Below are positions 7,587 to 62,444 of a DNA stretch of 64,000 nucleotides, in pieces. The translations under genes were made by a program, and so were the position numbers. The notes beneath the pieces are model-generated. The model was given only the letters and a program-made list of their open reading frames with translations. It was not told the DNA's origin and searched no databases. Source of the stretch: Candidatus Shapirobacteria bacterium (lineage in GTDB: Bacteria > Patescibacteriota > Microgenomatia > UBA12405); NCBI GenBank assembly GCA_022837635.1, contig JALHFY010000002.1:5055-69054 (forward strand). The letters run 5' to 3'. Positions within the stretch are counted from its first letter, which is position 1. Each line of letters starts with the position of its first letter.

Positions 7587-7592
7587 TTAGCT

Positions 7593-43708: not shown

Positions 43709-44253
43709 AAAATATTGTCATCGCCGGGACGTCGGGAGTAGGTAAAAGTTTTTTGGAAGAGGAGCTGCAAAAAAGAGGTTTAAGCTTCCAGATCCCAAAA
43801 TATACCGACCGAGAATTGAGGCCCGGGGAAAATCCAGAAAAATTAATTGCCCTGAGTGCGACTGAGTTTGAGAAGCAGAAAAATGATTTCTTTTTTACCC
43901 TAAAGTACGGTGGATTTAACTATGGCTGGCATAAAAAAGATTTAGCCAAAGCGCCAATAAGTTTGGCGATTACCCAAGAAAGTTTGGAGGAATTTTTGCA
44001 AAAAAATCCGGAGTTTTTGCCGGTACTTTTAGTGGTGACGGCAGAGAATTTTGAGATGTTAAAAAATAGGATGAGAACCAGAGGCGACAGTGAGGCAAAA
44101 ATTGCTCAAAGATTGAAATTGGCGGCAGAGGAAAATAAAAATCGGGAAAAATATGAAAAGATTGTTAAAAAATACCAAGGGTTGGTGTTTGAGATTAAAG
44201 ACGACTCGACTATTTTTGAGGCAGTGATACCGGAGTTGGCCAAGAGGAAGTGA
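43705..44253 (+). CDS. gmk: guanylate kinase-like protein
   Basis: P-loop IAGTSGVGKS, ...YTDRELRPGE (versus TTRQPRPGE), ...RMRTRGDSEAKIAQRL (versus RLRGRGQDSEEVIAKRM). Confidence 0.6.
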   Translation: MKNIVIAGTSGVGKSFLEEELQKRGLSFQIPKYTDRELRPGENPEKLIALSATEFEKQKNDFFFTLKYGGFNYGWHKKDLAKAPISLAITQESLEEFLQKNPEFLPVLLVVTAENFEMLKNRMRTRGDSEAKIAQRLKLAAEENKNREKYEKIVKKYQGLVFEIKDDSTIFEAVIPELAKRK

Positions 44254-46525
44254 TAAGTTGATCTTCGTCGAGTTGGATATTTTCCCTAAGGATTTGGTAA
44301 ATTGATTCAGTAACAAAGGGAATAAAAGGATGTAAAAGCTTCAGGGAGTTGATTAAAACAGTCAACAAAACCGGGACGACTTCGGGACCGCGATTTTTGG
44401 CATCTTCAATGTAAAGATCACAAAAATCATGCCAGAAAAATTGGTAGAGGTTTTCGCTGGCTTGACCAAAATGATAACGACCAAGGTCACGATTGGTGGA
44501 GTCAATGATATTGTTTAAGGAGGTGAGAATGGAGAGATCGGAGGGAGAGAAACCCTTCCCCGACCCTTCCCTTGACAGGGCAGGGAGAGAGAAATTTAAA
44601 TTTGGATCTTGTTGTTTGAATTTGTCGATGAGCATCAGCACAAAACGGGAAGCGTTCCAGATTTTGTTGACGAAATTGCGTTGGGCACGGATTTTATCTT
44701 CGGACACGATAAAATCGCTAGCCGGGGCAATACCATAAACCAAAGACATGCGGAGAGCATCGGCGCCATATTTTTCCGACATGACCAGAGGATCGATAAC
44801 ATTACCTTTACTTTTAGACATTTTTTGACCTTTGGCGTCGACAACACGGGAATGGAGGTGGACCAATTTAAAAGGCACTTCTTTGGTTAAATAGAGACCG
44901 AACATAATCATTCGAGCCACCCAGAAAAAGAGAATATCCCACATGGTATCCATGATGGAGGTGGGATAAAAATAGTGGAAGTCTTCACTGGAATTTTTGG
45001 GATCGGCAACATTAAAACCCAGAGTCGAGAGAGGCCATTGACCACTCAGAAACCAAGTGTCAAAGGTATCGGTTTCCTGAAGTAGATGATGACCGTGACA
45101 ATGAGGACAGGTCTCACCGGTGGAGATATCGACAAGATATTTAGTATCTATAGGAGCCAATAGAGATTGAAGACCGGATTTGATGTCTTCAAAAGAGTAT
45201 TTATCCTTGAGATCGGCATAAACACCACTGATTAAGTTTTTGTTTTTATCCAAGAAATTAAGTTTGATTTGAGGATTGCAGTCGAGACAATACCAAGCAG
45301 GAATTTGCGGACCCCAAACGATTTGTCGGGAAATGTTCCAGTCACGAATATTTTCCATCCAATCGAGATAGGCTTTTTTGAAACGAAGAGGGAAAAATTT
45401 AACTTTACCCTCTTTAGCGGCCTGAATGGCGGGCTGAGCCAATTTATCAATTTTGAGATACCACTGAGGAGCAGTGATGGGTTCGATGGGGCGACCGCAA
45501 CGATAACAATGACCGACCTCGTGAGTATAATCTTCAGTTTTTTCCAAAAATCCAGCTGTGTCTAAATCGGCAACAACTTGATCACGAAGTTGTTTGGGAT
45601 AGAGGCCTTGATATTTTTTGGGAACATTTTGATTGGATTTACCGTCATAATCAAAGATACGGATAAATTCAAGTTGGTGAGTTTTGGCCATATCGTAATC
45701 CTCGGGTGAATGGGCGGGAGTGACTTTGACGGCGCCGGTGCCAAATTCCAGACTGATAGATTTATCCCCTATGACCGGAATTTCTCGATTGACTAGAGGC
45801 AAAGTGACAGTGGTGCCGATTAAATGTTGATAGCGTTTGTCGGCGGGATTAACAGCAACGGCAGTGTCACCAAGCATGGTTTCGGGGCGAGTGGTAGCGA
45901 CAGTCAAGGGGCCATATTTGATGTACCACAAGTGAGAGGCAACAGTTTTATGTTCAACTTCGAGATTGGAAAAGGCGGTGCCACAGTGGGTACAATAATT
46001 GACAATTTTTTCGTCACGATAAATCAGTCCATCGTCATATAATTTTTTGAAAGTGGCGCGGACGTTGTCCAAAATTTGAGGTTCGAGGGAATAATGATAG
46101 CGACTCCAGTCGAGAGAATAACCCAATTTTTTCATTTGAAATTGATTCAAAGTGCGGTTTTTTTCGACAAAATCCCAAATCTGTTGATACAGGGTTTGAC
46201 GATCAAAATCAAAACGACTGTGACCTTGTTTTTGTAATTCTTTTTCGTAAACAAATTGAGTTTCGATACCGGCATGGTCCCCGCCAGGAAGCCACAAAGT
46301 GGGATCACCTAACATACGATGATAGCGGATGAGAATGTCTTGGACAGTGAAAAGAGCGTGGCCCATGTGCATGGGATTGTTGGCATTGGGTAGAGGCAAA
46401 ATAATGGAAAAAGGTTTTTTATTTTTGTCGATTTTGGGAGTGAAGGCGCCGGATTTTTCCCAAAGGGAATAAATTTGCTCTTCGTTGGCTGAAGAATAAC
46501 TCTTGTCCATGCGATATTTTAACAT
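44210..46525 (-). CDS. valS: valyl-tRNA synthetase (compact form)
   Basis: PLPNANNPMHMGHAL (HIGH), WLPGGDHAGIETQ, KMSKSKGNVIDP; 771 aa, lacking the C-terminal coiled coil. Confidence 0.85.
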   Translation of the reverse strand: MLKYRMDKSYSSANEEQIYSLWEKSGAFTPKIDKNKKPFSIILPLPNANNPMHMGHALFTVQDILIRYHRMLGDPTLWLPGGDHAGIETQFVYEKELQKQGHSRFDFDRQTLYQQIWDFVEKNRTLNQFQMKKLGYSLDWSRYHYSLEPQILDNVRATFKKLYDDGLIYRDEKIVNYCTHCGTAFSNLEVEHKTVASHLWYIKYGPLTVATTRPETMLGDTAVAVNPADKRYQHLIGTTVTLPLVNREIPVIGDKSISLEFGTGAVKVTPAHSPEDYDMAKTHQLEFIRIFDYDGKSNQNVPKKYQGLYPKQLRDQVVADLDTAGFLEKTEDYTHEVGHCYRCGRPIEPITAPQWYLKIDKLAQPAIQAAKEGKVKFFPLRFKKAYLDWMENIRDWNISRQIVWGPQIPAWYCLDCNPQIKLNFLDKNKNLISGVYADLKDKYSFEDIKSGLQSLLAPIDTKYLVDISTGETCPHCHGHHLLQETDTFDTWFLSGQWPLSTLGFNVADPKNSSEDFHYFYPTSIMDTMWDILFFWVARMIMFGLYLTKEVPFKLVHLHSRVVDAKGQKMSKSKGNVIDPLVMSEKYGADALRMSLVYGIAPASDFIVSEDKIRAQRNFVNKIWNASRFVLMLIDKFKQQDPNLNFSLPALSREGSGKGFSPSDLSILTSLNNIIDSTNRDLGRYHFGQASENLYQFFWHDFCDLYIEDAKNRGPEVVPVLLTVLINSLKLLHPFIPFVTESIYQILRENIQLDEDQLITSSWPTPVSLPQK

Positions 46526-49930: not shown

Positions 49931-49983
49931 GGAGGGGTCGGATAGTGTCCCAAAGGGACCCCGTTGGGGGTTCATTCCCCTCC
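49931..49983 (+). repeat. partial/pseudo tRNA-Ser copy (5' 17 nt + D-loop segment + acceptor 3' strand) flanking the GIY-YIG gene
   Basis: GGAGGGGTCGGATAGTG is identical to nt 1-17 of the tRNA-Ser at 50246, then a 22-nt insert, then GTTCATTCC and CCCCTCC shared with the tRNA. Confidence 0.5.
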
Positions 49984-49999
49984 TTGGTAATATAAAGGT

Positions 50000-50260
50000 A
50001 TGAATTATTACCTTTATATATTAAAAAGTTGTGATGGTAAACATTGGTATACAGGCTCGACAAGCAATATAATGTTGAGACTAAAACACCATAATAATGG
50101 TCATACATTTTCCACTAAACCGTATAGACCATGGAAATTAGTTTACTACGAAAAATTTAGTAGCCGGAAAGAAGCTTTTCGGAGAGAAATGTTTTTAAAG
50201 TCTCCGTCCGGTTATCAAGATTATTTGAAAATTAAAAAATCTATTGGAGGGGTCGGATAG
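50000..50260 (+). CDS. small GIY-YIG nuclease-family protein
   Basis: YYLYILKSCDGKHWYTGST...RLKHHN...; GIY-YIG core in 86 aa. The 3' end overlaps the first 15 nt of tRNA-Ser. Confidence 0.7.
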   Translation: MNYYLYILKSCDGKHWYTGSTSNIMLRLKHHNNGHTFSTKPYRPWKLVYYEKFSSRKEAFRREMFLKSPSGYQDYLKIKKSIGGVG

Positions 50261-50331
50261 TGGTTCATTCCACAGACCTGGAAAGTCTGCGGCCTTCATC
50301 GGCCTCGCGGGTTCGAATCCCGCCCCCTCCG
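50246..50331 (+). tRNA. tRNA-Ser (GGA), type II
   Basis: Acceptor GGAGGGG/CCCCTCC, discriminator G, D-arm GGA-TAGTGGTTCAT-TCC, anticodon loop CTGGAAA, long variable arm GGCCTTCATCGGCC, T-arm GCGGGTTCGAATCCCGC; CCA not encoded. Confidence 0.8.
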
Positions 50332-50376
50332 CTAAAAACTACACAAAACTATTATGAGGTATTAAAATCTAATAGA

Positions 50377-52143
50377 ATGGCACAAGTTTTTAAGACAACA
50401 GATTATACAATCGGTAAATTAATTGACGATATTGAAATCGGTGATATTGCTTTACCTGATATTCAACGTCCTTTTGTTTGGTACAAAAAAATATCAAAAG
50501 TTCGTGATTTGTTTGATTCTATTTATCGCGGTTATCCGATTGGTTATCTGCTTTTTTGGGAAAACGCAAACAGAAGTGATTACAGAAATATTGGGTTTGA
50601 AGAGAAAAAACGAAAAATACCAAGGTTTTTAATAATTGACGGACAACAAAGATTAACTGCTCTTTTCGCTGTAATGAAAAATCAGGAAGTTTTAACTCCT
50701 GACTATGAAAGTAAAAAAATTAAGATTGCATTTCGTCCAATAGACGCAAACTTTAAGGTTGGTGATGCAGCTACTGACCGAGACCCAGAATATATACCTG
50801 ATTTGTCAGCTTTATGGTCTGGAGAGGGTGACTATGCTGTGATTAGTAGTTTTATTTCTCAATTAAAAGAAAAACGGGAAATTACAAGAGAAGAAGAAAA
50901 GATAATTTCTACTAACATTCAATCTCTTATTAATGTTAATAAATATCCACTGACAGCTCTTGAAATAGCTCCAGACTTGGATGAAGAAATTGTATCGGAA
51001 ATTTTTGTCCGTATTAATAGTCAAGGCGTAAGTTTAACGCAAGCCGACTTTATTTTAACCCTACTTTCTGTTTATTGGGAAGAAGGGAGAACAGAAATTG
51101 AACAATTTTGTATTGATTCAAGGACGATTCCGGAAAAAGAAAGTCCCTTTTCTTCTTTTAATCATTTAATTAAACCTGATCCGGATGATATGCTTCGTGT
51201 TTTAGTGGGCTTGACATTTCGCCGCGCAAAAATGAAAGATGTTTATTCTGTTATTCGTGGACGTGATATGGAAACTGGAGAATTTTCTGAAGATTTAAGA
51301 ACACAACAGTTTGATAAATTAAAATTAAACTTACCAATAGTTCTGGATAATACTAACTGGCAAAGTTTTCTAAAAATTCTGATTGGAAGTGGATATAAAG
51401 ACGAGGAACTTATATCATCAAAAAATGCGGTCTTGTATAGTTATGTCCTTTTTCTGATTGGAAAAGAAAATTTTAACACCCAAAACCATGAGCTACAAAG
51501 AATTATCGGACGATGGTTTGTAATGTCTTCTTTGACAGGAAGGTATTCTTCTTCACCAGAAACCGCTTTTGAAAAGGATTTAAGTAGAATTAAAGAGTTT
51601 AGTCATGATGGATTTATTGACGGACTGGAAAAAATAATTGACGAGAATTTAACTAATGATTTTTGGGATATTACATTAGTCGGACAAATGGAAACGTCAT
51701 CAGCAAGAAGCCCAGAAGCCAACGCATTTTATGCAGCACTTAATAAACTTGGTTCACAGGTTTTGTTTTCTCGTAAACTGGTCGGTGATCTTTATGATCC
51801 ATCATTAAAAATTAGAAAGAAGCGTCTAGAAAGACATCATATTTTCCCAAGAAATTATCTTATTGCGAAATATGGATTTGATAAAAATAAAGACAAAGCA
51901 AAAATAAACCAAATTGCTAACCTGACATTTTTAGAATTTGAAGACAATATTGAAATTAGTGATAGTGCGCCAAGTGAATATTTTGCGATGCTTAAAAAGC
52001 GTTTTTCTGAAGAAGAGCTAAATCAAATGCTAGCTCAACATGCTATTCCACAAAAATTTTATGAACTAGAATATGATGAGTTTCTTAAAGAGAGAAGGAA
52101 GTTAATGGTGGGAGTTATTAGACAGGCATTTAACAAAACATAG
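50377..52143 (+). CDS. GmrSD-like type IV restriction protein (DUF262 ParB-like NTPase/nuclease + DUF1524 HNH-like)
   Basis: N-terminal ...DIQRPFVW...IIDGQQRLTALF (DUF262 DGQQR motif); C-terminal ...ERHHIFPRNYL...NQIANLTFLE (DUF1524 His-Me finger). The ORF-track N-terminal extension through the tRNA is rejected. Confidence 0.75.
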   Translation: MAQVFKTTDYTIGKLIDDIEIGDIALPDIQRPFVWYKKISKVRDLFDSIYRGYPIGYLLFWENANRSDYRNIGFEEKKRKIPRFLIIDGQQRLTALFAVMKNQEVLTPDYESKKIKIAFRPIDANFKVGDAATDRDPEYIPDLSALWSGEGDYAVISSFISQLKEKREITREEEKIISTNIQSLINVNKYPLTALEIAPDLDEEIVSEIFVRINSQGVSLTQADFILTLLSVYWEEGRTEIEQFCIDSRTIPEKESPFSSFNHLIKPDPDDMLRVLVGLTFRRAKMKDVYSVIRGRDMETGEFSEDLRTQQFDKLKLNLPIVLDNTNWQSFLKILIGSGYKDEELISSKNAVLYSYVLFLIGKENFNTQNHELQRIIGRWFVMSSLTGRYSSSPETAFEKDLSRIKEFSHDGFIDGLEKIIDENLTNDFWDITLVGQMETSSARSPEANAFYAALNKLGSQVLFSRKLVGDLYDPSLKIRKKRLERHHIFPRNYLIAKYGFDKNKDKAKINQIANLTFLEFEDNIEISDSAPSEYFAMLKKRFSEEELNQMLAQHAIPQKFYELEYDEFLKERRKLMVGVIRQAFNKT

Positions 52144-52216
52144 ATTAATACTGTATATAGTTAGCTTGTGTGAGTTATTTTGAAAAAGTTTGAAGGTGGA
52201 AGTGAAGCAGCAATAA

Positions 52217-52729
52217 TTATTTCTTAGCCTTGAGGAGAGCTACAAGACGGGCATGGGCTTTTTTGAGAAGATTACGTTCAAAATCATAGGCTAGTTTTTT
52301 GAGAGCTTCGTCATAGTGGTACCATTCACGACCAATAACAGTCTCGGAATCGTAATATTTTAGATTGCTGTCTTCACGATATTCCATCAGAAAAAAAGTG
52401 ACTTTTTTGATAATTTTTTTGTTGGTAACTTCGTCCCAGATAATATAATCTCTCGAACCGATTTTATCGATAATGGTGGCTTTGATGCGACCTTCTTCTT
52501 CCACTTCGCGAATGGCGGCTTGTTTTAGGACTTCACCGGGATTGAGATGACCTTTGGGAAACTTATAAATAGTATGGCGGGTTTTTTGACCGTGGCGCAA
52601 AGTACGTTTTTTGGAGAGAGTTTTGATGACAAACCAGAGAATTTCCCCATTGTTGACACGATAAACGATGCCTCCGGCGGAGCGTTCATCATAATTTAAA
52701 TTAGCCTGTTTTTGGGGAGTTTTGGTCAT
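52217..52729 (-). CDS. NUDIX hydrolase
   Basis: Nudix box [23 protein letters not shown]. Confidence 0.75.
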
Positions 52730-52751
52730 GAGATATTATACAATACGGGGG

Positions 52752-52825
52752 TATACCCGAGAGGATTTGAACCTCCAACCTTCAGCTTCGGAGGCCGACG
52801 CTCTATCCAATTGAGCTACGGGTAT
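52752..52825 (-). tRNA. tRNA-Arg (CCG)
   Basis: Minus-strand cloverleaf with acceptor ATACCCG/CGGGTAT, U8A9, D-arm GCTC-AATTGGATA-GAGC, anticodon loop CTCCGAA, T-arm GGAGGTTCAAATCCTCT, discriminator A. Confidence 0.7.
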
Positions 52826-52832
52826 GGGTCCC

Positions 52833-53183
52833 CTATTTTACCTCAATTTTAGCCAATTCGTCGTTAAGTTCGCCGGTAAACATCTCTGCCGGTCTAAAGC
52901 CGACAAAATCTTTGATAATTTTACCTTGATAAAAAAGTTTCAGGTTGGGAATGCTCATAATTTGATAATCAAAGGCTAGAGAACGGTTGTCAGATTGTTC
53001 GGTGTCTACTTTGGCGACTTTGAGTTTACCGTCAAATTGTTTGGCAATCTCTTCCAGAACTGGGGCCATCATTTGACAAGGTCCGCACCAAGGCGCCCAA
53101 AAATCGACTAAAACCGGTAATTTTTCGTCTAAAACTTCAGTTTTGAATTGGTCGACACCAAGAATGTTAAGAGGTGGTGACAT
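52833..53183 (-). CDS. trxA: thioredoxin
   Basis: [13 protein letters not shown] active site. Confidence 0.85.
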
Positions 53184-53406
53184 ATTTTTTTAAGTTAATT
53201 AATAATTTTTTATCGCTTTTTTTAAGTTTGGGAAAGCAAGAATCAAACTGCTCTTCGACAATAGTGGTAGTGAGACTGGAAAGAGCTGATTTAGCGGCTT
53301 TGAGTTGAGTCAAAATTTGCAGACAATCGGCCTGAGAATTCAGCATTTTTTTAATACCTTCCAGTTGCCCGATAATATTGTTGAGGCGTTGCTGTTTTGA
53401 TTTCAT
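53167..53406 (-). CDS. CsoR/RcnR/FrmR-family metal-sensing transcriptional repressor
   Basis: 79 aa, ...RLNNIIGQLEGIKKML...DCLQILTQLKAAKSAL... four-helix pattern with a conserved Cys (W-X-Y-Z position). Confidence 0.65.
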   Translation of the reverse strand: MKSKQQRLNNIIGQLEGIKKMLNSQADCLQILTQLKAAKSALSSLTTTIVEEQFDSCFPKLKKSDKKLLINLKKYVTTS

Positions 53407-53421
53407 AATTTACTTTAACAT

Positions 53422-53438
53422 ACACCCCCTGGGGGTGT
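53422..53438. promoter_or_regulatory. G/C-tract palindromic operator (CsoR-type) in the csoR / yibE-F divergent intergenic region
   Basis: ACACCCCC-T-GGGGGTGT, resembling CsoR/RcnR operators (TAC/G-tract palindromes). Confidence 0.45.
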
Positions 53439-53467
53439 CAAGAAATAAAGATGGAGTAAAATAATTT

Positions 53468-54517
53468 ATGAAAAAAATCTTAGTATGGTTAACCCTGTGG
53501 TGCTGGATAATTAATCCAAAAATAGTGGTAGCAAAGAATCCAAGTGTCGGTTTTCAGGGTGAGGTGGTGGAAATTTTAGAGGAAAAAGAGATTGAGGTGA
53601 TGGAGAAAAAACAATGGTATCAAAAGTTGGTGGTGGAAAGTTTGGATAAAAGTCAGCAGGTAGAAATAGAAAACGGCAATGATCCCCTGGCCAACGTGGT
53701 CAAATATCAAGTGGGTGACCAGGTGATAGTTAACACTGAAGGGGAAGCTTATATTGTCGATTTTGTGAGAAGCAAAGCGTTGGTGTGGTTAGCAATAATT
53801 TTTGTGGGATTGTTAATCGCGGTGGCCGGGAGTCGCGGGGCATGGTCGCTGTTGGCGATGGGAGTAACTTTCTTGGTCGTATTTTGGTTTATGTTGCCAC
53901 GGATTTTGGCGGGAGATAATCCGGTAGTGATCGCCATTTTGTCATCTTTGTTTATCATCCCGGTAACTTTTTATATGTCTCACGGTGTTAATCGTAAAAC
54001 GACGATTGCCATTATCGCCTCGGTAATTACTTTAATAATTGCGGCAATATTGGGATGGATTTTTATCAAGTTGGGTTATTTAACCGGATTGTCTTCGGAG
54101 GAAGCGGGAATGTTGGCTTTGGATAAAAGTAATTTACAAATGCGAGGGGTATTGTTGGCGGGAATGGTAATCGGGGCCTTGGGAGTGTTGGATGATATCA
54201 CTGTGTCACAGTCGGCCATTGTAGAGGAATTGGCGACCACAGCCGAGTTAAAAAAAGCCAAAGATTTGTACAATCGGTCGATGGTGGTGGGCAAGGATCA
54301 TATTACTTCAATGGTAAATACTTTAGTGTTGGCTTATGCCGGAGCGGCCATGCCCTTGATGTTAATCTTTGTGAATAATCCCCACCCTTTTGGAGAAATT
54401 ATTAACTATGAAATGATAGCTGAGGAAATTATCCGCACCTTGGTGGGTAGCATTGCTCTGATTTTAGCGGTGCCGATCAGTAGTTTTATCGCCGCGAATT
54501 GGAAGAGGGAGAGTTAA
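53468..54517 (+). CDS. YibE/F-family polytopic membrane protein
   Basis: Signal/TM, an about 100-aa extracytoplasmic domain, then 7-8 TM helices with Gly-rich segments; family assignment by architecture. Confidence 0.5.
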   Translation: MKKILVWLTLWCWIINPKIVVAKNPSVGFQGEVVEILEEKEIEVMEKKQWYQKLVVESLDKSQQVEIENGNDPLANVVKYQVGDQVIVNTEGEAYIVDFVRSKALVWLAIIFVGLLIAVAGSRGAWSLLAMGVTFLVVFWFMLPRILAGDNPVVIAILSSLFIIPVTFYMSHGVNRKTTIAIIASVITLIIAAILGWIFIKLGYLTGLSSEEAGMLALDKSNLQMRGVLLAGMVIGALGVLDDITVSQSAIVEELATTAELKKAKDLYNRSMVVGKDHITSMVNTLVLAYAGAAMPLMLIFVNNPHPFGEIINYEMIAEEIIRTLVGSIALILAVPISSFIAANWKRES

Positions 54518-55065
54518 GAACTTTTCACCTGTAAAAATCGGTTGGATTGGTAAAAAGATTCGACACTTCCGAGTTGCCACCAACCTGTCAATTCTGGTTG
54601 AATAATTAATTCCGGCTGATGAAAGGGAACACGTCCGGGAGATAAAGTTAAACTCAAAGGATGTGTGCCCCGACTATCTCTAATTTGAATTAGCTCTTGG
54701 CCTTCAAAAACAGTACCCAGCCTAAATAGTGATCTACGAATAGCAATATCTTGGAGATGAGTATGAACGGTTTCTTGAATGGTGTAATCAAGACCAGAAT
54801 GAACATTGCTGGGATGATCATCATACACATCAGAGGCACTGGAAACTAAATCCTTAAGAATCAATCGATTATTTTTTAAAAAAATAAAGTAGGCGTCCTC
54901 ATATATTTGACAGGCTTGGATAAAATCTAAATTACAGCGACCAAATTTCCAAATTAGATGCCAATTACCAGGCCCATAAGACTGATCCCAAAGACGATAT
55001 TTTTCATCTCTTTTAGAGCCTAAATAACCAACTTGTTGATTTAGTGTTTCGTATTCGCAATTCAT
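54514..55065 (-). CDS. hypothetical protein
   Basis: 183-aa ORF with no confidently recognised motif. Confidence 0.3.
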   Translation of the reverse strand: MNCEYETLNQQVGYLGSKRDEKYRLWDQSYGPGNWHLIWKFGRCNLDFIQACQIYEDAYFIFLKNNRLILKDLVSSASDVYDDHPSNVHSGLDYTIQETVHTHLQDIAIRRSLFRLGTVFEGQELIQIRDSRGTHPLSLTLSPGRVPFHQPELIIQPELTGWWQLGSVESFYQSNRFLQVKSS

Positions 55066-55097
55066 AGACGAACTTTAAACTGAAATCATTTGAAAGT

Positions 55098-55119
55098 CTA
55101 GTAAAGTCGACTTCACTAG
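55098..55119. promoter_or_regulatory. 22-bp near-perfect palindrome (core AAGTCGACTT) upstream of the wHTH-NUDIX gene, followed by -10 TATAAT
   Basis: CTAGTAAAGTCGACTTCACTAG; TATAAT at 55139-55144; a related copy sits upstream of the paralog at 63211-63224. Confidence 0.45.
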
Positions 55120-55150
55120 ATTTCAGAAAAGGGCGGGCTATAATCCCCTT

Positions 55151-55840
55151 ATGGAAGAACTACATGAATATCAATTTTCAATTTTAAGAACTTTATTATT
55201 TAAACCAGGAGCACGATTTTCCGAATTAAATAAAGTCGGTATAAGTAGTGATCATTTTAATTTTCATGTTAAACAATTGAGTAATTGGGGTTTGGTTAAA
55301 AAGGAAAATCAAAGATACTTTTTGACTAATAAAGGTAAGGAATTGGCGGGGAGGATGGATACTGATCAACTGACGATAGAGAAACAAGCCAAGTTGGGGG
55401 TGGCATTACATGCTGTTCGTAAGAATAAGGGAGTGACGGAATATTTAATTCATCATCGATTAAAAGAACCACTGTATGGTTGGTACGGTTCACATTCAGG
55501 CAAAATTCGTCGGGGAGAAAATCCGGAAGAAACCGCCAAACGAGAGTTTTTTGAGGAAACAGGTTTAACAGGTAAATTTAGTCTGAAAGCGATTAAGCAA
55601 CAACGAGAATTTGATGCTACCGGGAAATTGTTAGAGGATAAATATTTTTGGGTCTATCGAGTGGATGATGTCCAAGGTACGTTGAAAGAAAAGGTAGAGG
55701 AGGGGGAAAATTTGTGGATGACAAAAGAAGAAATTAAAAAACTAAAAAATGTGTTTGCCAGTTTTGAGGAAATGTATGAAGTTTTGGAGAGTCAAGAAGT
55801 GTTGATTTTAAGAGGTGACAGGACGCTGGAAAAATATTAA
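55151..55840 (+). CDS. winged-HTH + NUDIX hydrolase fusion protein (paralog A)
   Basis: N-terminal approx. 70-aa wHTH (ILRTLLFKPGARFSELNKV...HVKQLSNWGLV); C-terminal Nudix box GKIRRGENPEETAKREFFEETGL. Confidence 0.65.
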   Translation: MEELHEYQFSILRTLLFKPGARFSELNKVGISSDHFNFHVKQLSNWGLVKKENQRYFLTNKGKELAGRMDTDQLTIEKQAKLGVALHAVRKNKGVTEYLIHHRLKEPLYGWYGSHSGKIRRGENPEETAKREFFEETGLTGKFSLKAIKQQREFDATGKLLEDKYFWVYRVDDVQGTLKEKVEEGENLWMTKEEIKKLKNVFASFEEMYEVLESQEVLILRGDRTLEKY

Positions 55841-56455
55841 TTAATCTAACAAATGGGCTTGGTCGTTCCAGCATTTAAGTTGCCAGGGGCCGTGTTCGTT
55901 GGTCAAAATGGAAATACCAGTATTGCCTAATCTAAGGAATTTTCTTGAATCGATGACAATTTGAGGAGTGAGATTATCGCCAAAAAAGAGAAGAGAGGTG
56001 AGGAAACTGATGAAGTTACCATGAGAGACAACTAAAATATTGTCTTGATTAAATGACTCTAAAAATTTGATAGCCTGGTATCCCCTCTTTTGTAAATCAT
56101 AAAAATTTTCTTCATCGGAATAGTGCCAATGGGGGTCGGAGACAAATTTTTCTTTAATTTTTTTTAAAACAGAGGTTACCTGAGGATTTTCATAGGCGAG
56201 ACCGACAATTTCTGAAGGTTTTCTAGTTTCAATAAAAAGATCACTGGCGATAACTTTTTTAGAAATAAAATTGGCAGTTTGAAGGGCTCTGGTGTAGGAG
56301 GAAGAAACAACTAAATCTAATTTAAAATCTTCGAAACGATGGGCTAATTTTTTAGCTTGCTCCAGTCCCTTGTCATTGAGAGGCTCATCAGGAGTTTGAG
56401 TTTTGGCCTGTTGACGGGCATCAGTGGCCCCATGACGAACAAAATAAAGGTTCAT
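55841..56455 (-). CDS. histidine-phosphatase superfamily protein
   Basis: YFVRHGAT (RHG motif), ...SSYTRALQTA..., ...VVSHGNFI; overlaps the upstream NUDIX gene by 4 nt (operon). Confidence 0.7.
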   Translation of the reverse strand: MNLYFVRHGATDARQQAKTQTPDEPLNDKGLEQAKKLAHRFEDFKLDLVVSSSYTRALQTANFISKKVIASDLFIETRKPSEIVGLAYENPQVTSVLKKIKEKFVSDPHWHYSDEENFYDLQKRGYQAIKFLESFNQDNILVVSHGNFISFLTSLLFFGDNLTPQIVIDSRKFLRLGNTGISILTNEHGPWQLKCWNDQAHLLD

Positions 56456-56943
56456 ATTTTGTGTGCGTATTTTTCATCAAAGATTTTAATGACATGGTCA
56501 ATTTTGGAGGGGTCGATTTGGCGAGTTTGCATAATTTCTTCGATAAAAGGACGAAGTTCAACATAAGTAAGGTGAGTACTGGGAGTCAATTTTAATTTAG
56601 CCACCTCGTCAAGAGTAAACCAAGCGATACCTTGACCTTCACCGGGACCAAGTTTAAATTTGTCTTCATCTGCCTTGTCAACAAAAGCGACAAAAACATG
56701 GACATTTTCGCCACGACTGCCCCGACGGGTAAGAACATGTTGACAATGTGGCAATCTAACGGAAACTTCTTCCTCAACTTCACGAAGCACGGCCTCGCGG
56801 GGACTTTCCCCCGGCTCAATGCCACCACCGACTATTTGCCAACAATCAGGTGAAGGAATAGTGGGAATGTTGTCCCGATGAAAAAGAAGAACTTTGTCAG
56901 GGCTCATGATTAAAGCACTAGCACCATCTTTGACTCTTTCCAT
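56452..56943 (-). CDS. NUDIX hydrolase
   Basis: Nudix box GGGIEPGESPREAVLREVEEEVSV. Confidence 0.75.
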   Translation of the reverse strand: MERVKDGASALIMSPDKVLLFHRDNIPTIPSPDCWQIVGGGIEPGESPREAVLREVEEEVSVRLPHCQHVLTRRGSRGENVHVFVAFVDKADEDKFKLGPGEGQGIAWFTLDEVAKLKLTPSTHLTYVELRPFIEEIMQTRQIDPSKIDHVIKIFDEKYAHKI

Positions 56944-57004
56944 GAGAATATTGTATCGCTAATGGATATAGACTGATTGAAAAGAAGTTGGAGGAAAGAG
57001 GAAA

Positions 57005-57421
57005 TTATTTCAACAGGGATTTAAACTCGGGATAATTTTCGGCGATAATTTTTTTCCATTTGTCGGTTTCTCGAGGTTCACCAATTTCGTTTTTGGAATA
57101 CACCAACAGGATTCTGATAGTTTTTTTATGGGAATCAACGGCGGCAATAAGGCGATTGCCTGAACTTTTGGCGGAAATATTGCTACCGGCAATCTTAAAA
57201 TCAAGCTTAACAATCATCCAGGAATCAATGGGACAGATAATATCCAACTGTGCGGTGTTGGAAATATGCTTGGGAGCAATATTATCATAACGACGAAGAA
57301 ATTCTCTGATGGCAGTTAAAGTGACATTCCAGGCTTTACCTTTATATTTTTTGGAAAACTTGCGAATATAGTGATTTTCGGCAAATCTTTCAATAAAAAC
57401 TGAATAGTCATTAGTAGACAT
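57005..57421 (-). CDS. putative toxin of a Panacea-type toxin-antitoxin pair (family unknown)
   Basis: 138-aa basic protein whose start overlaps the 3' end of the HTH-Panacea gene by 11 nt; no known toxin motif recognised. Confidence 0.4.
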   Translation of the reverse strand: MSTNDYSVFIERFAENHYIRKFSKKYKGKAWNVTLTAIREFLRRYDNIAPKHISNTAQLDIICPIDSWMIVKLDFKIAGSNISAKSSGNRLIAAVDSHKKTIRILLVYSKNEIGEPRETDKWKKIIAENYPEFKSLLK

Positions 57422-58091
57422 AATCGGGGTCCTGTTGGGTGATTAATTCGTAAGGTATCACTTCCCCGGGGTTACAAATTTGATAAGGAAGTTGCTGATG
57501 AGTGAAATCAACGATTTCTGAAGTTCTTTTACCTTTCCATTTTTGGGCAATTTTCTGGATTAATTGTTGTTCTTGAGTATTTAAGATTTTGGATTGGAAT
57601 TGCTGGCCGGTATCGCTAAGACTAATCAATTGACTATTGTCTTTGAAGAGAATATTGATTTTTCCATCTAAAAAAAGTTCATCAATGGCCCGAAAATAGT
57701 GGTTGGGAACAGGACCTTGGTCCAAACGGCGATATTGAGCACCGGTCATTGGTTCTAGTTGTGAATAAAACCAGGCAAAATCAGCTAAGTAAATGAGTTT
57801 AGCAAGTTTGGTTTTGGTCATTTGACCGTCATCATCGGCACCATATTTGAGCATGTTTAACAAAACTTCAGTATATTTTTCTTCGTTTAAGATGTTTTCG
57901 GAAATGATATCAGTAGTACCAACACCGAGTCTGTTGGCCAAATTGCTAACTTGGTTCAAGGTTAAATTGGGACTACCGTTTTTTTCCAGGGCGATATAGG
58001 TGGCACGAGAAATACCTAGAGCGGCAGCCATTTGGGCTTGAGTCCAACCTTGATTTTTACGTAACTTGGCAATGTATTGTGCATCAATCAT
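57411..58091 (-). CDS. XRE-family HTH + Panacea (DUF4065) domain antitoxin-like protein
   Basis: N-terminal HTH (LRKNQGWTQAQMAAALGISRATYIALEKNG); C-terminal ...KTKLAKLIYLADFAWFYSQLEPMTGAQY..., typical of Panacea/SocA-like domains. Confidence 0.65.
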   Translation of the reverse strand: MIDAQYIAKLRKNQGWTQAQMAAALGISRATYIALEKNGSPNLTLNQVSNLANRLGVGTTDIISENILNEEKYTEVLLNMLKYGADDDGQMTKTKLAKLIYLADFAWFYSQLEPMTGAQYRRLDQGPVPNHYFRAIDELFLDGKINILFKDNSQLISLSDTGQQFQSKILNTQEQQLIQKIAQKWKGKRTSEIVDFTHQQLPYQICNPGEVIPYELITQQDPDYVY

Positions 58092-58115
58092 GCTTTAGTT
58101 TAGTTCTGAGTGGTA

Positions 58116-58140
58116 AAAATGTCAAATTTTTTGACATTTT
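58116..58140. promoter_or_regulatory. inverted repeat operator upstream of the HTH-Panacea gene
   Basis: AAAATGTCAAA-ttt-TTTGACATTTT about 25 nt upstream of the start, plus a third half-site AAAATGTCA at 58167-58175. Confidence 0.4.
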
Positions 58141-58221
58141 AATGTAAAAAATGGGGACAGGATTTGAAAATGTCACACTGGATAAAAAGTCAGGTGGAGG
58201 AATATTTACGACCACAAAATA

Positions 58222-58785
58222 TTATTTTTTAAGAGATATATTTGACTGTGAATTACGAAAAGTTGCGGTAATTTTGGTAAATATGTGACGTGGATGATCG
58301 TTGTTTTGATCAAAAGTCATCTTTTCATTTTTTGGTTCTATGAAAAGTTGAGCTTTATCTTTGCTTTTTCGACTGCCAGCCAACACCATTAATTGAGCTT
58401 CATTTTTTTTATTTTTAGAAATTTTAACTTCAACCCAATAATCATCATCAGATTTGTGTTCATTTTTAACTTTTATTAATTCTCCGTCTATATTAATAAT
58501 GTCTGCATTTTTAAACTTAAATGACTTGGAAATGCTTATAAAGTCTTCTGTTTTTTCCTCAATTGGCTTATCAAGAGTAATTTTAAAATCACAGTTTATA
58601 CACTCATACTTGTATTCCCCTATAGAATACTTTTCTTTAGATTTTTTTAGATTGCAATTACATTTAGGGTTTGGACATAATGGAGTTGTGTGGGTACTTA
58701 TAGAACCACTAAAAGGATTCTTGACATAAAACAAATGCCAATTAATTTTATGCCAATGATATATTATTAGTTTTTTGTGTTTCAT
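58222..58785 (-). CDS. hypothetical Cys-rich protein (very AT-rich gene)
   Basis: CPNPKCNC...CINC zinc-ribbon-like motifs; Lys-rich; compositionally aberrant. Confidence 0.3.
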   Translation of the reverse strand: MKHKKLIIYHWHKINWHLFYVKNPFSGSISTHTTPLCPNPKCNCNLKKSKEKYSIGEYKYECINCDFKITLDKPIEEKTEDFISISKSFKFKNADIINIDGELIKVKNEHKSDDDYWVEVKISKNKKNEAQLMVLAGSRKSKDKAQLFIEPKNEKMTFDQNNDHPRHIFTKITATFRNSQSNISLKK

Positions 58786-58925
58786 ACTTTTGTATAAATT
58801 TATGAAATGTACATTATATATACCGAAATAAACCCGAAGTCAAGAGGTGTGATTTAATCAATATTAAGAATGAATATTGAAAATTAACTACTTTACTTCG
58901 GGTATTGATCGGGTAATATGTAAGT

Positions 58926-59708
58926 ATGGAAGTGTATTTTAAACAACCGAATTTCTGTCTTTATAAAGGTGATTGTGTACAGGTGTTAAAAAAAATTAAA
59001 AACAATTCGGTTGATATGATATTTGCCGATCCTCCTTACTTTTTATCAAACGGTACCTTTACTTGTAAAAATGGGAAAATGGTTAGTGTCAAAAAAGGTG
59101 AATGGGATATGGGAAAAAGTTTAAAAGAAAATTTAAAATTTCATACCAAGTGGATAAAAGAATGTAAAAGAGTATTAAAACCTGAAGGTACCATATGGAT
59201 TAGCGGAACTTACCATTCAATATATCAATGTGGTTTTGCTTTACAAAAAAATGATTATAAAATTTTAAATGAAATAGTTTGGTATAAACCTAATGCTTCA
59301 CCGAATTTAAGTTGTCGATTTTTTACAGCCAGCCATGAGACTTTGATTTGGGCTCGGAAAGACAAAAAAGCTAAACATACTTTCAATTATGATGTGGTTA
59401 AAAATAATGATTGGCCCAAAGACTTTTTGAAAAAGAAAGGTTTTCAAATGAGATCAGTTTGGGCTATTTATACCCCAAGAAAAGAAGAAAAAGTTTTTGG
59501 AAAACATCCAACCCAAAAATCACTCGAACTGCTCAATAGAATCATCCTGTCGAGTACAAAAAAAGGAGATATTGTTTTGGATCCATTTACAGGAAGCTCA
59601 ACCACTGGTATTGCAGCCATAACAAATGATCGGCAATTTTTAGGGATAGACACTGAAAAGGAATATTTAGATTTGTCAATAAAAAGATACAAAGCTTTGA
59701 TAAAATAA
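58926..59708 (+). CDS. beta-class N6-adenine/N4-cytosine DNA methyltransferase (DpnA/MboIC-like)
   Basis: Motif IV FADPPYF near the N-terminus and motif I VLDPFTGSSTTG near the C-terminus (beta permutation). Confidence 0.8.
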   Translation: MEVYFKQPNFCLYKGDCVQVLKKIKNNSVDMIFADPPYFLSNGTFTCKNGKMVSVKKGEWDMGKSLKENLKFHTKWIKECKRVLKPEGTIWISGTYHSIYQCGFALQKNDYKILNEIVWYKPNASPNLSCRFFTASHETLIWARKDKKAKHTFNYDVVKNNDWPKDFLKKKGFQMRSVWAIYTPRKEEKVFGKHPTQKSLELLNRIILSSTKKGDIVLDPFTGSSTTGIAAITNDRQFLGIDTEKEYLDLSIKRYKALIK

Positions 59709-59712
59709 AGAC

Positions 59713-60252
59713 ATGATACAAGGTGGTGTTGGTGGAGCTAACACAAAAACAGGCTTATATTATGAAGGTAAGGTGGATCTGCTGACATTTATAGCTTCTA
59801 AAAAAGGTTATTCTATAAAGGATAATATTGTTTATTTTCACGGGAAAGAAGTTGCTCAAACATTTAAGAAACATGCTCTCTATACATACTTGGCTAAACG
59901 AGGAATAAATTATAAAGATTACATATCAAAAAAATTATTACCAGATGATTCGATTTTTGTAATAGTCAAAAATACTTTATTTATCATAGAAGTGAAGTTT
60001 CAAAGAGTAGCAGGTTCTACGGATGAAAAACTACAAACTTGTGATTTTAAAATCAAACAGTACAGAAAACTATTATCAAGATTAAATATAGAAGTAAAGT
60101 TTATTTATATTCTCAACAGAGAATGGTTTGATAAACCGGTGTATAAAGATGTACTTGATTACATTGTTTCGATAGATGGTTGTCGGTATTATTTTGACTA
60201 TCTGCCATTACATGAACTTGGTTTACCAGTACCTGATGGTGAAAATGACTAA
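59713..60252 (+). CDS. putative PD-(D/E)xK restriction endonuclease (small)
   Basis: LPDD...IIEVKFQ resembles the PD-(D/E)xK motif; positioned between two MTase genes; start 5 nt after the MTase stop. Confidence 0.4.
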   Translation: MIQGGVGGANTKTGLYYEGKVDLLTFIASKKGYSIKDNIVYFHGKEVAQTFKKHALYTYLAKRGINYKDYISKKLLPDDSIFVIVKNTLFIIEVKFQRVAGSTDEKLQTCDFKIKQYRKLLSRLNIEVKFIYILNREWFDKPVYKDVLDYIVSIDGCRYYFDYLPLHELGLPVPDGEND

Positions 60253-61100
60253 TAGCTGGTAATAATTAGTTCTTTGATTTTTCCTCTTTTCTCTCCTTTG
60301 CTATTAATTGAACGAGCTGAGTATACTTCATGAATATTAAACGGCTGATACAGCTTTCTAATGAAATCTGTATTGGAATTACTTAACATAACAAAACATC
60401 CTTTTTGGTGTAGTTGTTTAAAAGTTTCTGATAATTTTATTTGTTCCTTGAAAGTAAAATTATTTTTTGAGTAATTGGTAAAGTTGGCGGTGGTGTTTAA
60501 TGGATAATAAGGAGGATCGAAATAAATAAAATCACTTTTTTTACAAGTTTTTATTGATTCCTCAAAAGAAGTACTAGTAATATGAGTATCGTGTAAGGTG
60601 TGGGATACGGCTTGAATATTACCTACGTCGCAAATGGTTGGGTTGGGTTGATCGCCAAAGGGAATATTATATTCACCTTTGGAATTTTCACGATACATTC
60701 CGTTAAAACAAGTTTTGTTAAGGAAAATAAGATAGGCGCAGTAAGTTAAATTGTCTAATGAATTTTGATTATATTCTTGGCGAATTTGATAAAAATATTT
60801 TTTTTGATTATCTAAATTAAGTTTTTTGTATTCCTTTTCTATATTTTTTAGAAGTTTGATCAAGGAATCAGGATCCTGCTTGATAATTTCATAACAGTTC
60901 ATCAGTTTTTTATTAATATCATTGATATAAGAATGATTTGTGATGAGTTTTTTATTAGACAATTCAAAGAATAAGGCTCCCCCTCCCATAAATGGTTCGT
61001 AATAATTATTGATTTTGTTAGGGATCAGTTTCGAAATCTCCGGGATGAGTTTACTTTTTCCTCCAACCCATTTAACGAATGGTTTTGCTGGTTTTGTCAT
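60249..61100 (-). CDS. Dam-family (alpha-class, D12) N6-adenine DNA methyltransferase, probably GATC-specific
   Basis: VKWVGGKSKLIPEI, YYEPFMGGGALFF (motif I), DPPYYPL (motif IV); collinear with E. coli Dam/DpnM. Confidence 0.85.
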   Translation of the reverse strand: MTKPAKPFVKWVGGKSKLIPEISKLIPNKINNYYEPFMGGGALFFELSNKKLITNHSYINDINKKLMNCYEIIKQDPDSLIKLLKNIEKEYKKLNLDNQKKYFYQIRQEYNQNSLDNLTYCAYLIFLNKTCFNGMYRENSKGEYNIPFGDQPNPTICDVGNIQAVSHTLHDTHITSTSFEESIKTCKKSDFIYFDPPYYPLNTTANFTNYSKNNFTFKEQIKLSETFKQLHQKGCFVMLSNSNTDFIRKLYQPFNIHEVYSARSINSKGEKRGKIKELIITSY

Positions 61101-61154
61101 GAATTAGTTATTATAACTTTTTACTAAAGGAAGTTATACTTAGTCATTAATAAA

Positions 61155-61817
61155 ATGAAGCAAAAAGAGTTGGAGAAAATACAGGCGGAATATAAGAGGA
61201 TTTTTGGAAATGTATGGGAGAAAGGTGGGGGTTGGGGGTATAGATACAAACATGGCGTCAGGGTGATGCGATATTGTCAAAAAATTGTCAAATATAATCG
61301 TTTTAAGAAAGAAAAATTGGATATAGAGGCGCTGTTGGTGGCGGCCTTGTTTCATGATATCGGCAAAATCAGGGCGGTGAACAAAAACAGAGAATTGGTA
61401 TATGGTAATTATGGCGGAGAAACACATGAGGCTTTAGGAGCAAAATTGGCGCCAAAATATTTGAGGAAATTTGTTAAAGATAAAAATAAATTGGAGTTGA
61501 TTTCACTGTTTATTGCCGAACAAGAACCAGAAAAAAGTGAAATCAGGACCGAATCAAAAATTATTAAAGACGCCGATAGATTGGATCATTTCGGAGTTAT
61601 TCATTTGTTGGTATCGGCGGTATATGCCAATTACAACCGTAAAAATATTGAGGGATTACGGGAATTTTGGGAGGGAGAGGAAGGTAAGAAAAAATATTTG
61701 AGAAATTTTGAAAAATTTAATTTTCCGGAGGTAAAAAAGGTGGCGATGAAGAGATTTGCTAATTTAAGTCGGGCGACGGAGCTAATTTTTGAAGAGGATG
61801 AAGGGAGAGATCTTTAG
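61155..61817 (+). CDS. HD-domain phosphohydrolase
   Basis: ...ALLVAALFHDIGK... HD motif, ...DADRLDHFG... Confidence 0.7.
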   Translation: MKQKELEKIQAEYKRIFGNVWEKGGGWGYRYKHGVRVMRYCQKIVKYNRFKKEKLDIEALLVAALFHDIGKIRAVNKNRELVYGNYGGETHEALGAKLAPKYLRKFVKDKNKLELISLFIAEQEPEKSEIRTESKIIKDADRLDHFGVIHLLVSAVYANYNRKNIEGLREFWEGEEGKKKYLRNFEKFNFPEVKKVAMKRFANLSRATELIFEEDEGRDL

Positions 61818-62332
61818 GAATTGTTAGGGTGGAGTTGGTGGTATTTTTTTAGGGCCGTGGTAAAGAGCTGATCACCGGTTTTGCCCCAGCGCAGATATTT
61901 AGGTAAATCCGCGGGATCGATAAAGATTCTTTGATGAATCTGACCACTTTCCGGATCGATTTGTGGTTTGAGAATTTTTTTAATATCGGCGATGTAAAAC
62001 ATTTGAATGAACCACGGTTGTTGACTATTGGCTTTTTGGACTTTGAAACCACCAACCAGCTGAGGATTTTGAAGTAAAACATTGGCTTCTTCTTCAATTT
62101 CTCGATGTAAAGTTTCTAGAAATGTTTCTGTAGACTTGGGGCTACCACCAGGAAATCTAAGTTCTCCATTTTCTCTGATGATCATAACTTGGCCGGTGTG
62201 GTCAAAACAAATACCACTGACAAGTGTCTTTTTGGATTTTTGTAAATCCGGATCTGATTCGTTGAGCCATTGGTAATAATAATCTTCCCCTCTCCAGTTG
62301 ACAATGATGAAATTATTTTTGATAGTGGACAT
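61814..62332 (-). CDS. NUDIX hydrolase
   Basis: Nudix box GGSPKSTETFLETLHREIEEEANV; overlaps the HD gene end by 4 nt. Confidence 0.7.
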   Translation of the reverse strand: MSTIKNNFIIVNWRGEDYYYQWLNESDPDLQKSKKTLVSGICFDHTGQVMIIRENGELRFPGGSPKSTETFLETLHREIEEEANVLLQNPQLVGGFKVQKANSQQPWFIQMFYIADIKKILKPQIDPESGQIHQRIFIDPADLPKYLRWGKTGDQLFTTALKKYHQLHPNNS

Positions 62333-62444
62333 AATGATATTTTACTAGGAAGATTGTGGGTTTTGTGAAATCAGTCTATAATTCGGTAGAGATGATGAGG
62401 TGGTGGAAGTTGGGGAAAGAATTTTATACTGTAAAAGAAACGGG

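Follow-up and report, generated by a model that had tools for sequence, protein, structure and literature searches.

A GmrSD/BrxU-like restriction gene in a tRNA-Ser-linked slot of a Candidatus Shapirobacteria genome, and its putative origin in a recombinase-borne defence module

Restriction enzymes of the GmrSD/BrxU family have been described to the level of individual motifs. DGQQR has been assigned to nucleoside triphosphate (NTP) hydrolysis, RLFDS to nucleotide binding and (D/E)HIxP...N...N to an HNH nuclease (PMC4619093, bioRxiv 10.1101/2024.01.29.577857; the motif roles in GmrSD/BrxU enzymes are also covered in PMC8565348), and defence is lost when DGQQR (in HEC-06) or the (D/E)H nuclease motif (in BrxU and HEC-06) is mutated (PMC4619093, bioRxiv 10.1101/2024.01.29.577857). 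The association of GmrSD-like genes with type I restriction-modification (RM) systems, helix-turn-helix (HTH) regulators and integrases is likewise documented (PMC4619093; bioRxiv 10.1101/2024.01.29.577857), the neighbourhood of GmrSD being enriched for type I RM genes, HTH_19 and integrases (PMC4619093). In this study we examine a gene of this family at positions 50377-52143 of a 64,000-nucleotide stretch (hereafter the window) of contig JALHFY010000002.1 from a Candidatus Shapirobacteria bacterium, a member of the candidate phyla radiation (CPR). From sequence comparison we consider it likely that the gene encodes a single-chain type IV restriction enzyme of the GmrSD/BrxU (HEC-05) family, acquired as cargo in a 1.9-kb slot, and that it is the solitary survivor of a module made up of an HTH gene, the GmrSD gene and RM genes.

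In size the window protein, with 588 amino acids (aa), is close to BrxU (E. fergusonii pEFER; PDB 7P9K/7P9M; HEC-05 in PADLOC), which has 587. It shares with that enzyme the layout of DUF262, helical linker and DUF1524, an RLFDS-type motif, DGQQR and an HNH-type xHIxP motif, and its orthologue group, too, is often found in or beside RM-type systems. It differs in that significant similarity covers essentially only the N-terminal 240 or so residues, the C-terminal alignment not being significant, in that the nuclease motif reads HHIFP rather than DHIYP as in BrxU (or EHICP as in HEC-06), and in that the window copy is solitary rather than embedded in BREX. With Eco94GmrSD and EcoCT GmrSD, type IV enzymes that restrict DNA containing glucosylated 5-hydroxymethylcytosine (glc-5hmC), the window protein has in common both Pfam domains, DGQQR and the single chain, and its nuclease motif is a candidate of the (E/D)-H-N-N type, whereas GmrSD proper is without the RLFDS motif (bioRxiv 10.1101/2024.01.29.577857) and the window enzyme has RDLFDS and a CPR host. 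SspE, the phosphorothioate-sensing DUF262/DUF1524 nickase, is similar in its domain superfamily and DGQQR-type NTPase, but its PADLOC model, 771 profile positions long against 588 residues here, matches only 16 residues (aa 85-100) at E 7e-5. No ssp or dnd genes were noticed in the scanned part of the window (46.7-64 kb), and Pfam scans of 50-64 kb gave no Ssp or Dnd domains. The locus also resembles tRNA-linked integrative islands and defence hot spots: cargo lies directly 3' of a tRNA, its content varies between strains and species, and a site-specific recombinase uses the tRNA 3' end. Here, however, the recombinase is a large serine recombinase and not a tyrosine integrase, the shared core is 4 nucleotides (nt) with no long direct repeat, and the "island" in the window is one gene without a recombinase.

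The gene and its two predicted domains are placed as follows.

50377-52143, plus strand: GmrSD/BrxU-like gene (DUF262-linker-DUF1524), intact, 588 aa; from Pfam, PADLOC and BrxU 7P9K.
50410-51063, plus strand: N-terminal GmrS/DUF262 domain (ParB/Srx-type NTPase) with two motifs inside; from Pfam.
51760-52038, plus strand: C-terminal GmrD/DUF1524 His-Me-finger nuclease domain with HHIFP and N511, N515 and N524; from Pfam.

A reading of the window made earlier from its letters (the sequence-only reading) had proposed a DUF262 plus DUF1524 architecture with DGQQR and a type IV-like GmrSD/BrxU affiliation, and profile searches bear out both. PF03235 (GmrSD_N) matches aa 12-229 over profile positions 1-197 of 199 at E 6.9e-32, and PF07510 (GmrSD_C) matches aa 462-554 with 25.4 bits against a gathering cutoff of 23, a match that is likewise precomputed for several orthologues. 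The best PADLOC model is HEC-05 (E 4e-40), BrxU 7P9K is the sole significant PDB match (E 9e-11 with the single sequence, 1.5e-11 with a profile), and an NCBIfam search returned no family for the protein. The motifs agree with this assignment: R43-D-L-F-D-S48 (nt 50503-50520) aligns to the BrxU RLFDS in phmmer, DGQQR lies at aa 88-92 (nt 50638-50652) in the context IIDGQQRLTAL, and HHIFP lies at aa 487-491 (nt 51835-51849) in the context E485-R-H487-H488-I-F-P, with N511, N515 and N524 downstream. Among 21 orthologues all of these residues are strictly invariant except F46, which is nearly so.

The gene runs from an ATG at 50377 to a TAG at 52143. A mechanically called open reading frame (ORF) of 627 aa begins instead at a GTG (50260-52143) and runs over the tRNA-Ser gene; since all orthologues (62 of 62) begin with the codons ATG GCN CAA at the position matching 50377, we take that position as the correct start and the longer ORF as an over-extension. 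Gene calls on public contigs (L029-L031, L035, L036) list the 627-aa product from GTG 50260 within tRNA-Ser together with a 62-aa GIY-YIG product, and judged against the orthologues both starts look mis-called.

The surroundings of the gene were compared with relatives retrieved through valyl-tRNA synthetase (ValRS; window 44210-46525) and YibE/F homologues and mapped by blastn (L041/L046, ValRS 96% identical; L047/L048, YibE/F 97%; L049/L050, YibE/F 85%; L044, ValRS 79%; and L045), and with conspecific contigs found by exact flanking proteins (L029, L032 and L037-L040, 100% identical; L030, 99.6-100%; L031, 96.6-98.7%). The ValRS assigns the window to Candidatus Shapirobacteria, and the arrangement of the window recurs on conspecific contigs from several samples. 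Three features describe the site.

50246-50332, plus strand: tRNA-Ser(GGA), left boundary of slot 1; from ARAGORN, 94% identical to the tRNA of L041.
50329-50332, no strand: putative unoccupied attachment core CCGC, from the junctions of L033/L034 and L008/L009.
50336-52216, no strand: variable slot 1, from blastn breakpoints at the tRNA-Ser 3' end and at the stop codon of the gene NUDIX-170.

The tRNA-Ser gene is one of four tRNAs in the window and lies 44 nt upstream of the restriction gene on the same strand, in agreement with the earlier placement of the gene directly after a tRNA; a second one, tRNA-Arg(CCG) at 52750-52825 on the minus strand, 0.6 kb past the gene, was absent from that reading. 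Slot 1 (1.9 kb) is the sole DNA around the gene without a counterpart in the aligned L041/L046, L045, L047, L049 and L050, and the more distant L044 likewise has no GmrSD gene. Its place is taken by a C5 DNA methylase (362 aa) and an HNH_2 protein (329 aa) in L041/L046 (L046 6346-8425), by an epimerase and other ORFs in L045, and by an epimerase, a NUDIX protein, a peptide deformylase and a peptidase M15 in L047. L049/L050 have only about 110 nt from tRNA-Ser to NUDIX-170, with a ferredoxin-like gene and a rhodanese 5' of the tRNA, and in L044 the tRNA-Ser is inverted and adjoins a NUDIX gene. The GmrSD gene has a GC content of 0.329 and a third-position GC content (GC3) of 0.214, as against 0.396 +/- 0.035 and 0.351 +/- 0.047 in core genes, and its nucleotide homology to 27 foreign loci comprises essentially the ORF only (70-82% identity). 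Because the slot is replaced in relatives, GC3 is low and the foreign homology is limited to the ORF, the gene is horizontally acquired cargo at a tRNA-linked recombination hot spot of this Shapirobacteria lineage. The window copy is a bare ORF, with neither an HTH gene nor an RM gene as partner.

Conspecific contigs provide a view of recombination at this site. As far as 50332, L033/L034 match the window at 100% identity, and beyond that point they run into a gene whose 497-aa product is a large serine recombinase with the domains Resolvase, Recombinase and Zn_ribbon_recom; L008/L009 match the window at 99.9-100% from 50329 on and carry upstream of it unrelated, GC-richer DNA with a 208-aa ORF. 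The two junctions have only CCGC in common, and a short shared core of this kind fits a serine-recombinase crossover. Because the junctions meet at CCGC, the window represents the unoccupied site, with the GmrSD gene just outside the recombinase element, and the 3' end of tRNA-Ser is a live integration site. The attP of the excised conspecific element could read ...GTATAATACACCGCCAATAAGG.... The window itself has no recombinase gene next to GmrSD; the 497-aa enzyme is seen at the site only in the conspecific L033/L034. Its ORF there crosses attL into the tRNA, ending ...GRDSNPRGR, and both contigs are short, the interior of the element lying beyond them.

The window protein belongs to a widely distributed and closely similar group, with more than 120 database clusters 85-91% identical to it. 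Orthologues in a collection with one genome per species come from Nomura-, Dojka-, Moranii-, Peri- and Paceibacteria, Omnitrophota, TA06, Lentisphaerota, a Bdellovibrio-like bacterium and an Altiarchaeales archaeon; copies from Gammaproteobacteria and Flavobacteriaceae show 72% identity, and metagenomes supplied 76 more loci with an orthologue, none of them on viral contigs. A viral origin was considered and set aside, IMG/VR holding no relative and GenBank phage records only homologues at most 39% identical, and a search for plasmid-borne close relatives found only full-length DUF262 proteins at 30-33% identity. Exactly 588 codons are present in 57 of 63 genes (62 non-redundant full-length loci plus the window copy). 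Synonymous sites are saturated (synonymous differences, pS, 0.64-0.91) and nonsynonymous divergence (dN) is mostly about 0.05-0.1 and at most 0.2, for a ratio to synonymous divergence (dN/dS) of about 0.02-0.06. Median pairwise protein identity is 89%, and it is still about 92% for copies whose HTH neighbours share only 50-70% identity; the neighbour genes of orthologues are much more divergent or non-homologous. By these measures the conservation of the group appears housekeeping-like and unusually strong for a defence gene.

The neighbours of the orthologues follow a recurrent order. A 69-aa HTH_3 gene ends 3-4 nt ahead of the ATG in about half of the 62 loci, and a gene of at least 100 aa begins 2 nt after the stop codon in about 40 of them. 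Clustering at 85% identity yields 116 groups among the 126 downstream ORFs, and in a Pfam search of the 116 representatives RM domains dominate. The systems include type IIB/G-like enzymes (HSDR_N_2-N6_Mtase with an S subunit), type I systems in both gene orders, N4/N6 methylases, a methylase-Mrr fusion, Tsp45I-, EcoRV- and EcoRI-type systems and a RadC-Dam fusion. The window is not the only locus with a solo copy, others being L018, L070-L072, L077 and L078.

Features of related loci suggest how such modules may move. Eight of the 13 tRNAs located within 3 kb upstream of orthologues on the same strand are tRNA-Ser (anticodons GGA, GCT, CGA and TGA), an excess with a binomial P of about 1e-5 against a 10% background; the eight cases need not all have arisen independently. 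L010 and L057 each have a large serine recombinase gene between tRNA-Ser and the HTH-GmrSD-RM module; these two enzymes share 95% identity with one another and 50% with the conspecific L033 enzyme. Elsewhere (L018, L076, L011, L049) only the first 25-100 nt of the element remain after the tRNA CCA, with deletions into the HTH gene or ORF fusions. In the window the tRNA ends in CCGC followed directly by TAAAAAC, with no CCA, left-end remnant, HTH gene or RM gene, and it appears to be the extreme of this deletion series. The modules of L004, L075, L067 and L025 are bounded by inverted repeats 95-100% identical (7400-7603 and 13009-13212 in L004; 657-852 and 5932-6127 in L075), which measure 196-204 nt if neither arm is truncated and at least 52-90 nt if an arm runs off the contig. 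At their outer ends the repeats read TTGGCGG..GTTCGAAC, the reverse complement of a tRNA 3' end, and joining these ends, ...ACACCGCCAA meeting TTGGCGGTGT..., would create an attP-like palindromic site. L010 differs in that its perfect inverted repeat of 134 nt (3663-3796 and 5280-5413) flanks the recombinase gene. None of the inverted-repeat, HTH and recombinase features of these loci is present in the window. We tentatively put forward, as a possibility that we ourselves hold to be rather doubtful, that the orthologue group, instead of consisting of ordinary, rapidly evolving type IV enzymes, is the conserved core gene of widespread, small, non-autonomous defence cassettes. Each would consist of HTH, GmrSD and exchangeable RM genes between inverted repeats of about 200 nt, with palindromic attP-like joined ends mimicking a tRNA 3' end, and would be moved by tRNA-Ser-targeting large serine recombinases across CPR, other phyla and DPANN-type archaea, the window being an end state of cassette decay.

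As for the enzyme, a mechanism can be proposed by analogy with BrxU and Eco94GmrSD. The N-terminal ParB/Srx-fold domain would bind and hydrolyse NTP through the RDLFDS-like and DGQQR motifs, which would set the oligomeric or active state, perhaps by dimer-to-monomer control as in BrxU, and the C-terminal His-Me-finger (HNH) domain would use HH...N...N to cleave incoming DNA bearing a foreign base modification. The host's own DNA would escape cleavage; the methylases within the window are amino-methyltransferases only. With BrxU and GmrSD as models, the protein most likely acts alone as an NTP-regulated, modification-dependent endonuclease. The gene is likely functional and kept by selection, given the intact ORF, the low dN/dS and the exact protein on other conspecific contigs (it is encoded on L008/L009, and L029 and L038 span the whole gene at 100% nucleotide identity). 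A terminator scan found no terminator-like site between tRNA-Ser and the gene, and a promoter scan found one weak -35/-10-like site, at 50340-50368, that is no better than chance; since there is no terminator in between and only this weak site ahead of the gene, the gene may possibly be co-transcribed with the tRNA. In origin, the window copy would be what was left of a module of HTH, GmrSD and variable RM genes after its partners had been stripped away, and its descent from a recombinase-borne module can reasonably be inferred from the related loci.

The sister species with a C5 methyltransferase and HNH pair in the same slot made it attractive to suppose that the enzyme targets 5-methylcytosine (5mC) and never co-occurs with C5 methylases, an idea that was rejected as a rule, as L075 and L102 have a C5 methylase within about 1 kb of the orthologue. 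Within slot 1 the C5 methylase and HNH_2 pair and GmrSD may still be mutually exclusive alternatives, but the same two loci combine GmrSD with a C5 methylase.

The sequence-only reading had gone further and treated the DNA from the tRNA to the window end, with its RM, toxin-antitoxin (TA) and NUDIX genes, as one tRNA-associated defence or accessory island. Two further features bear on this.

52217-54518, no common strand: syntenic core of NUDIX-170 (minus), tRNA-Arg(CCG) (minus), thioredoxin (minus), CsoR-like (minus) and YibE/F (plus); from blastn.
57011-61152, no strand: variable slot 2; from Pfam, PADLOC and blastn.

The backbone order is ValRS, ABC transporter, Excalibur, a 234-aa gene, tRNA-Ser, slot 1, NUDIX-170, tRNA-Arg, thioredoxin, CsoR and YibE/F, continuing with a variable stretch, NUDIX-163, slot 2, HD and NUDIX-172. 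The core at 52217-54518 is collinear at 79-96% nucleotide identity in L045, L046, L047, L049 and L050, and from 52451 in L048, where the contig ends; taken together with NUDIX-163 (56468-57010) the range is 69-96%, the order being kept in the relatives. The patch at 54519-55840 (to 56467 in some relatives) is variable and unrelated to defence, and 61153-62397 is partly common to L047/L048, with 61693-62356 also in L046. Slot 2 of the window holds a 138-aa ORF with an HTH-Panacea (SocA-like) partner, a 187-aa ORF, an N4/N6 methyltransferase, a 179-aa PD-(D/E)XK-like ORF and a Dam methyltransferase. In L046 the same slot holds a HAD hydrolase, an SLFN-like helicase and a MazG-like protein, in L047 a type I RM system with an AAA_13 protein, and in L048 the same Panacea pair with DUF3800 and a type ISP/IIG enzyme; L049 has the methylase set of the window and L050 none of these genes.

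The RM, TA and NUDIX genes predicted downstream do exist, in the form of the methyltransferases with the PD-(D/E)XK-like ORF, the HTH-Panacea gene with its 138-aa partner, and six NUDIX-domain genes within 11 kb (52217-63152; at 52217, 55151 in an HTH fusion, 56452, 61814 and 62445, with one further neighbour). Status as island cargo does not hold for at least three of the NUDIX genes, since NUDIX-170, NUDIX-163 and NUDIX-172 are syntenic in relatives and belong to the backbone; NUDIX-229 lies in a variable patch. The expected deviation in composition appears in GmrSD and in the slot-2 genes at 58222-61100 (GC3 0.20-0.28), and is missing from the genes of the 52217-54518 core and from NUDIX-163, which are in the normal range. 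A direct repeat of the tRNA 3' end, suggested as a boundary mark, was not found: no 12-mer of the tRNA-Ser 3' half recurs downstream, and the only repeat is one of 17 nt from the tRNA 5' end, belonging to a GIY-YIG insertion described below. Serine recombinases are not expected to generate such a repeat. What survives of the tRNA-associated island is 50336-52216, which adjoins the tRNA 3' end and is absent from relatives, and what fails is its run to the window end across the syntenic blocks. The "island" is instead a mosaic, made up of core blocks interspersed with distinct variable patches, and among these are two small defence slots that vary independently: L049 has the RM set without GmrSD.

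In weighing these readings, a single contiguous island bounded by tRNA-Ser, from about 49.9 kb to past the window end and with the NUDIX, TA and RM genes inside, would account for the recurrence of defence genes downstream (the TA pair and RM set at 57-61 kb), for the several patches of 50-62 kb that vary among relatives and for the lower GC at 57-61 kb. It is very improbable all the same, given that two blocks within it keep their collinearity with relatives, that NUDIX-170, tRNA-Arg, thioredoxin, CsoR and YibE/F are normal in composition, that no repeat of the tRNA 3' end follows and that the two slots change independently. Several observations weigh against the interpretation of the gene as a self-sufficient type IV enzyme and module survivor. 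The PF07510 score of the C-terminal domain is marginal, and the acidic residue of the (D/E)H nuclease motif is a histidine in the window protein; an HH variant of the motif does occur in classical HNH enzymes. The AlphaFold2 model has a mean pLDDT of 41 and a pTM of 0.25, from a shallow multiple sequence alignment of 21 sequences 85-91% identical. No HTH gene remnant, cassette inverted repeat or attL/recombinase left-end remnant lies beside the window gene, the C5 methylases near the orthologue at two loci are contrary to a simple 5mC-targeting specificity, and the RM gene that starts 2 nt past the stop codon in about 40 of 62 loci would fit dependence on a partner.

That last observation leads to the proposal that the protein is a subunit or sensor needing the HTH regulator and translationally coupled RM genes, so that the orphan in the window would be a non-functional or deregulated remnant. 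The HTH gene 3-4 nt before the ATG in about half of the loci and the dominance of RM domains downstream speak for it, but the RM types are unrelated to one another (116 clusters among 126 ORFs), which makes a specific protein partner improbable, the window ORF is uninterrupted and its exact protein is encoded by other conspecific contigs, further solo copies exist, and BrxU and Eco94GmrSD work alone (PMC8565348, PMC4437046); we regard this proposal as unlikely. The strong conservation could also mean that the gene mainly serves a mobile cassette, as a selfish gene or part of its backbone, its ParB-like NTPase and HNH nuclease acting for instance in maintenance, competitor exclusion or mobility, with host defence at most a side effect. 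Such a role would agree with the median identity of 89%, the absence of indels in 57 of 63 copies and a dN/dS of at most 0.06 despite saturated synonymous sites, with the identity of about 92% kept beside HTH proteins of 50-70% and the homology that stops at the ORF borders, and with the placement of the module, in related loci, between inverted repeats, each about 200 nt long, with outer ends that resemble a tRNA 3' end. We give it only a slim chance, because proven defence enzymes have this same architecture and these motifs, the gene was not found on viral contigs and the window gene persists without cassette features; to our knowledge no mobility function is known for the GmrSD/BrxU family. 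A single-chain type IV enzyme, acquired in slot 1 and surviving its module, is the interpretation we retain.

Upstream of the slot, the tRNA-Ser gene bears a small insertion.

49931-50262, plus strand: 315-bp insertion with an 86-aa GIY-YIG ORF (50000-50260; PF01541, E 6e-16) and 17-bp repeats.

The insertion lies inside the 5' part of tRNA-Ser between perfect 17-bp direct repeats of the tRNA 5' end, GGAGGGGTCGGATAGTG, at 49931-49947 and 50246-50262, the left copy running on into a folded pseudo-tRNA remnant. L049 has it too (91% aa identity); L046/L047 and L050 lack it. In the unrelated L076 a GIY-YIG ORF 42% identical to it lies directly upstream of tRNA-Ser(CGA) and is itself preceded by a copy of the tRNA D-arm, which suggests that small GIY-YIG genes home into tRNA-Ser genes. 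Across the whole window (1-64000) the GC skew is strongly positive, about +0.1 to +0.4, except for dips to roughly 0 at 32-36 kb and close to the end of the window; it seems to hold regardless of gene orientation. Strand composition disparity in a Microgenomates genome is reportedly, by its title, the subject of one paper (PMC7143001).

Earlier work already describes the family, the architecture and the linkage to RM systems. Less expected are the housekeeping-like conservation across domains, the role of the gene as a constant front gene for many RM systems, the large serine recombinases at tRNA-Ser 3' ends and the module bounded by inverted repeats, features that come from related loci and are not visible in the window itself. 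For the window, the annotation gains a start fixed at 50377 with the 627-aa over-call into the tRNA removed, and the apparent 14-kb island resolves into a conserved backbone with two small defence slots that vary independently of each other. The predicted enzyme puts type IV restriction on record for a CPR (Shapirobacteria) genome, and the serine recombinase at its site is unusual among tRNA-linked islands. If the cassette model is true, it would represent a new vehicle for the spread of defence systems among uncultivated, ultra-small prokaryotes and may offer a source of tRNA-Ser-specific large serine integrases.

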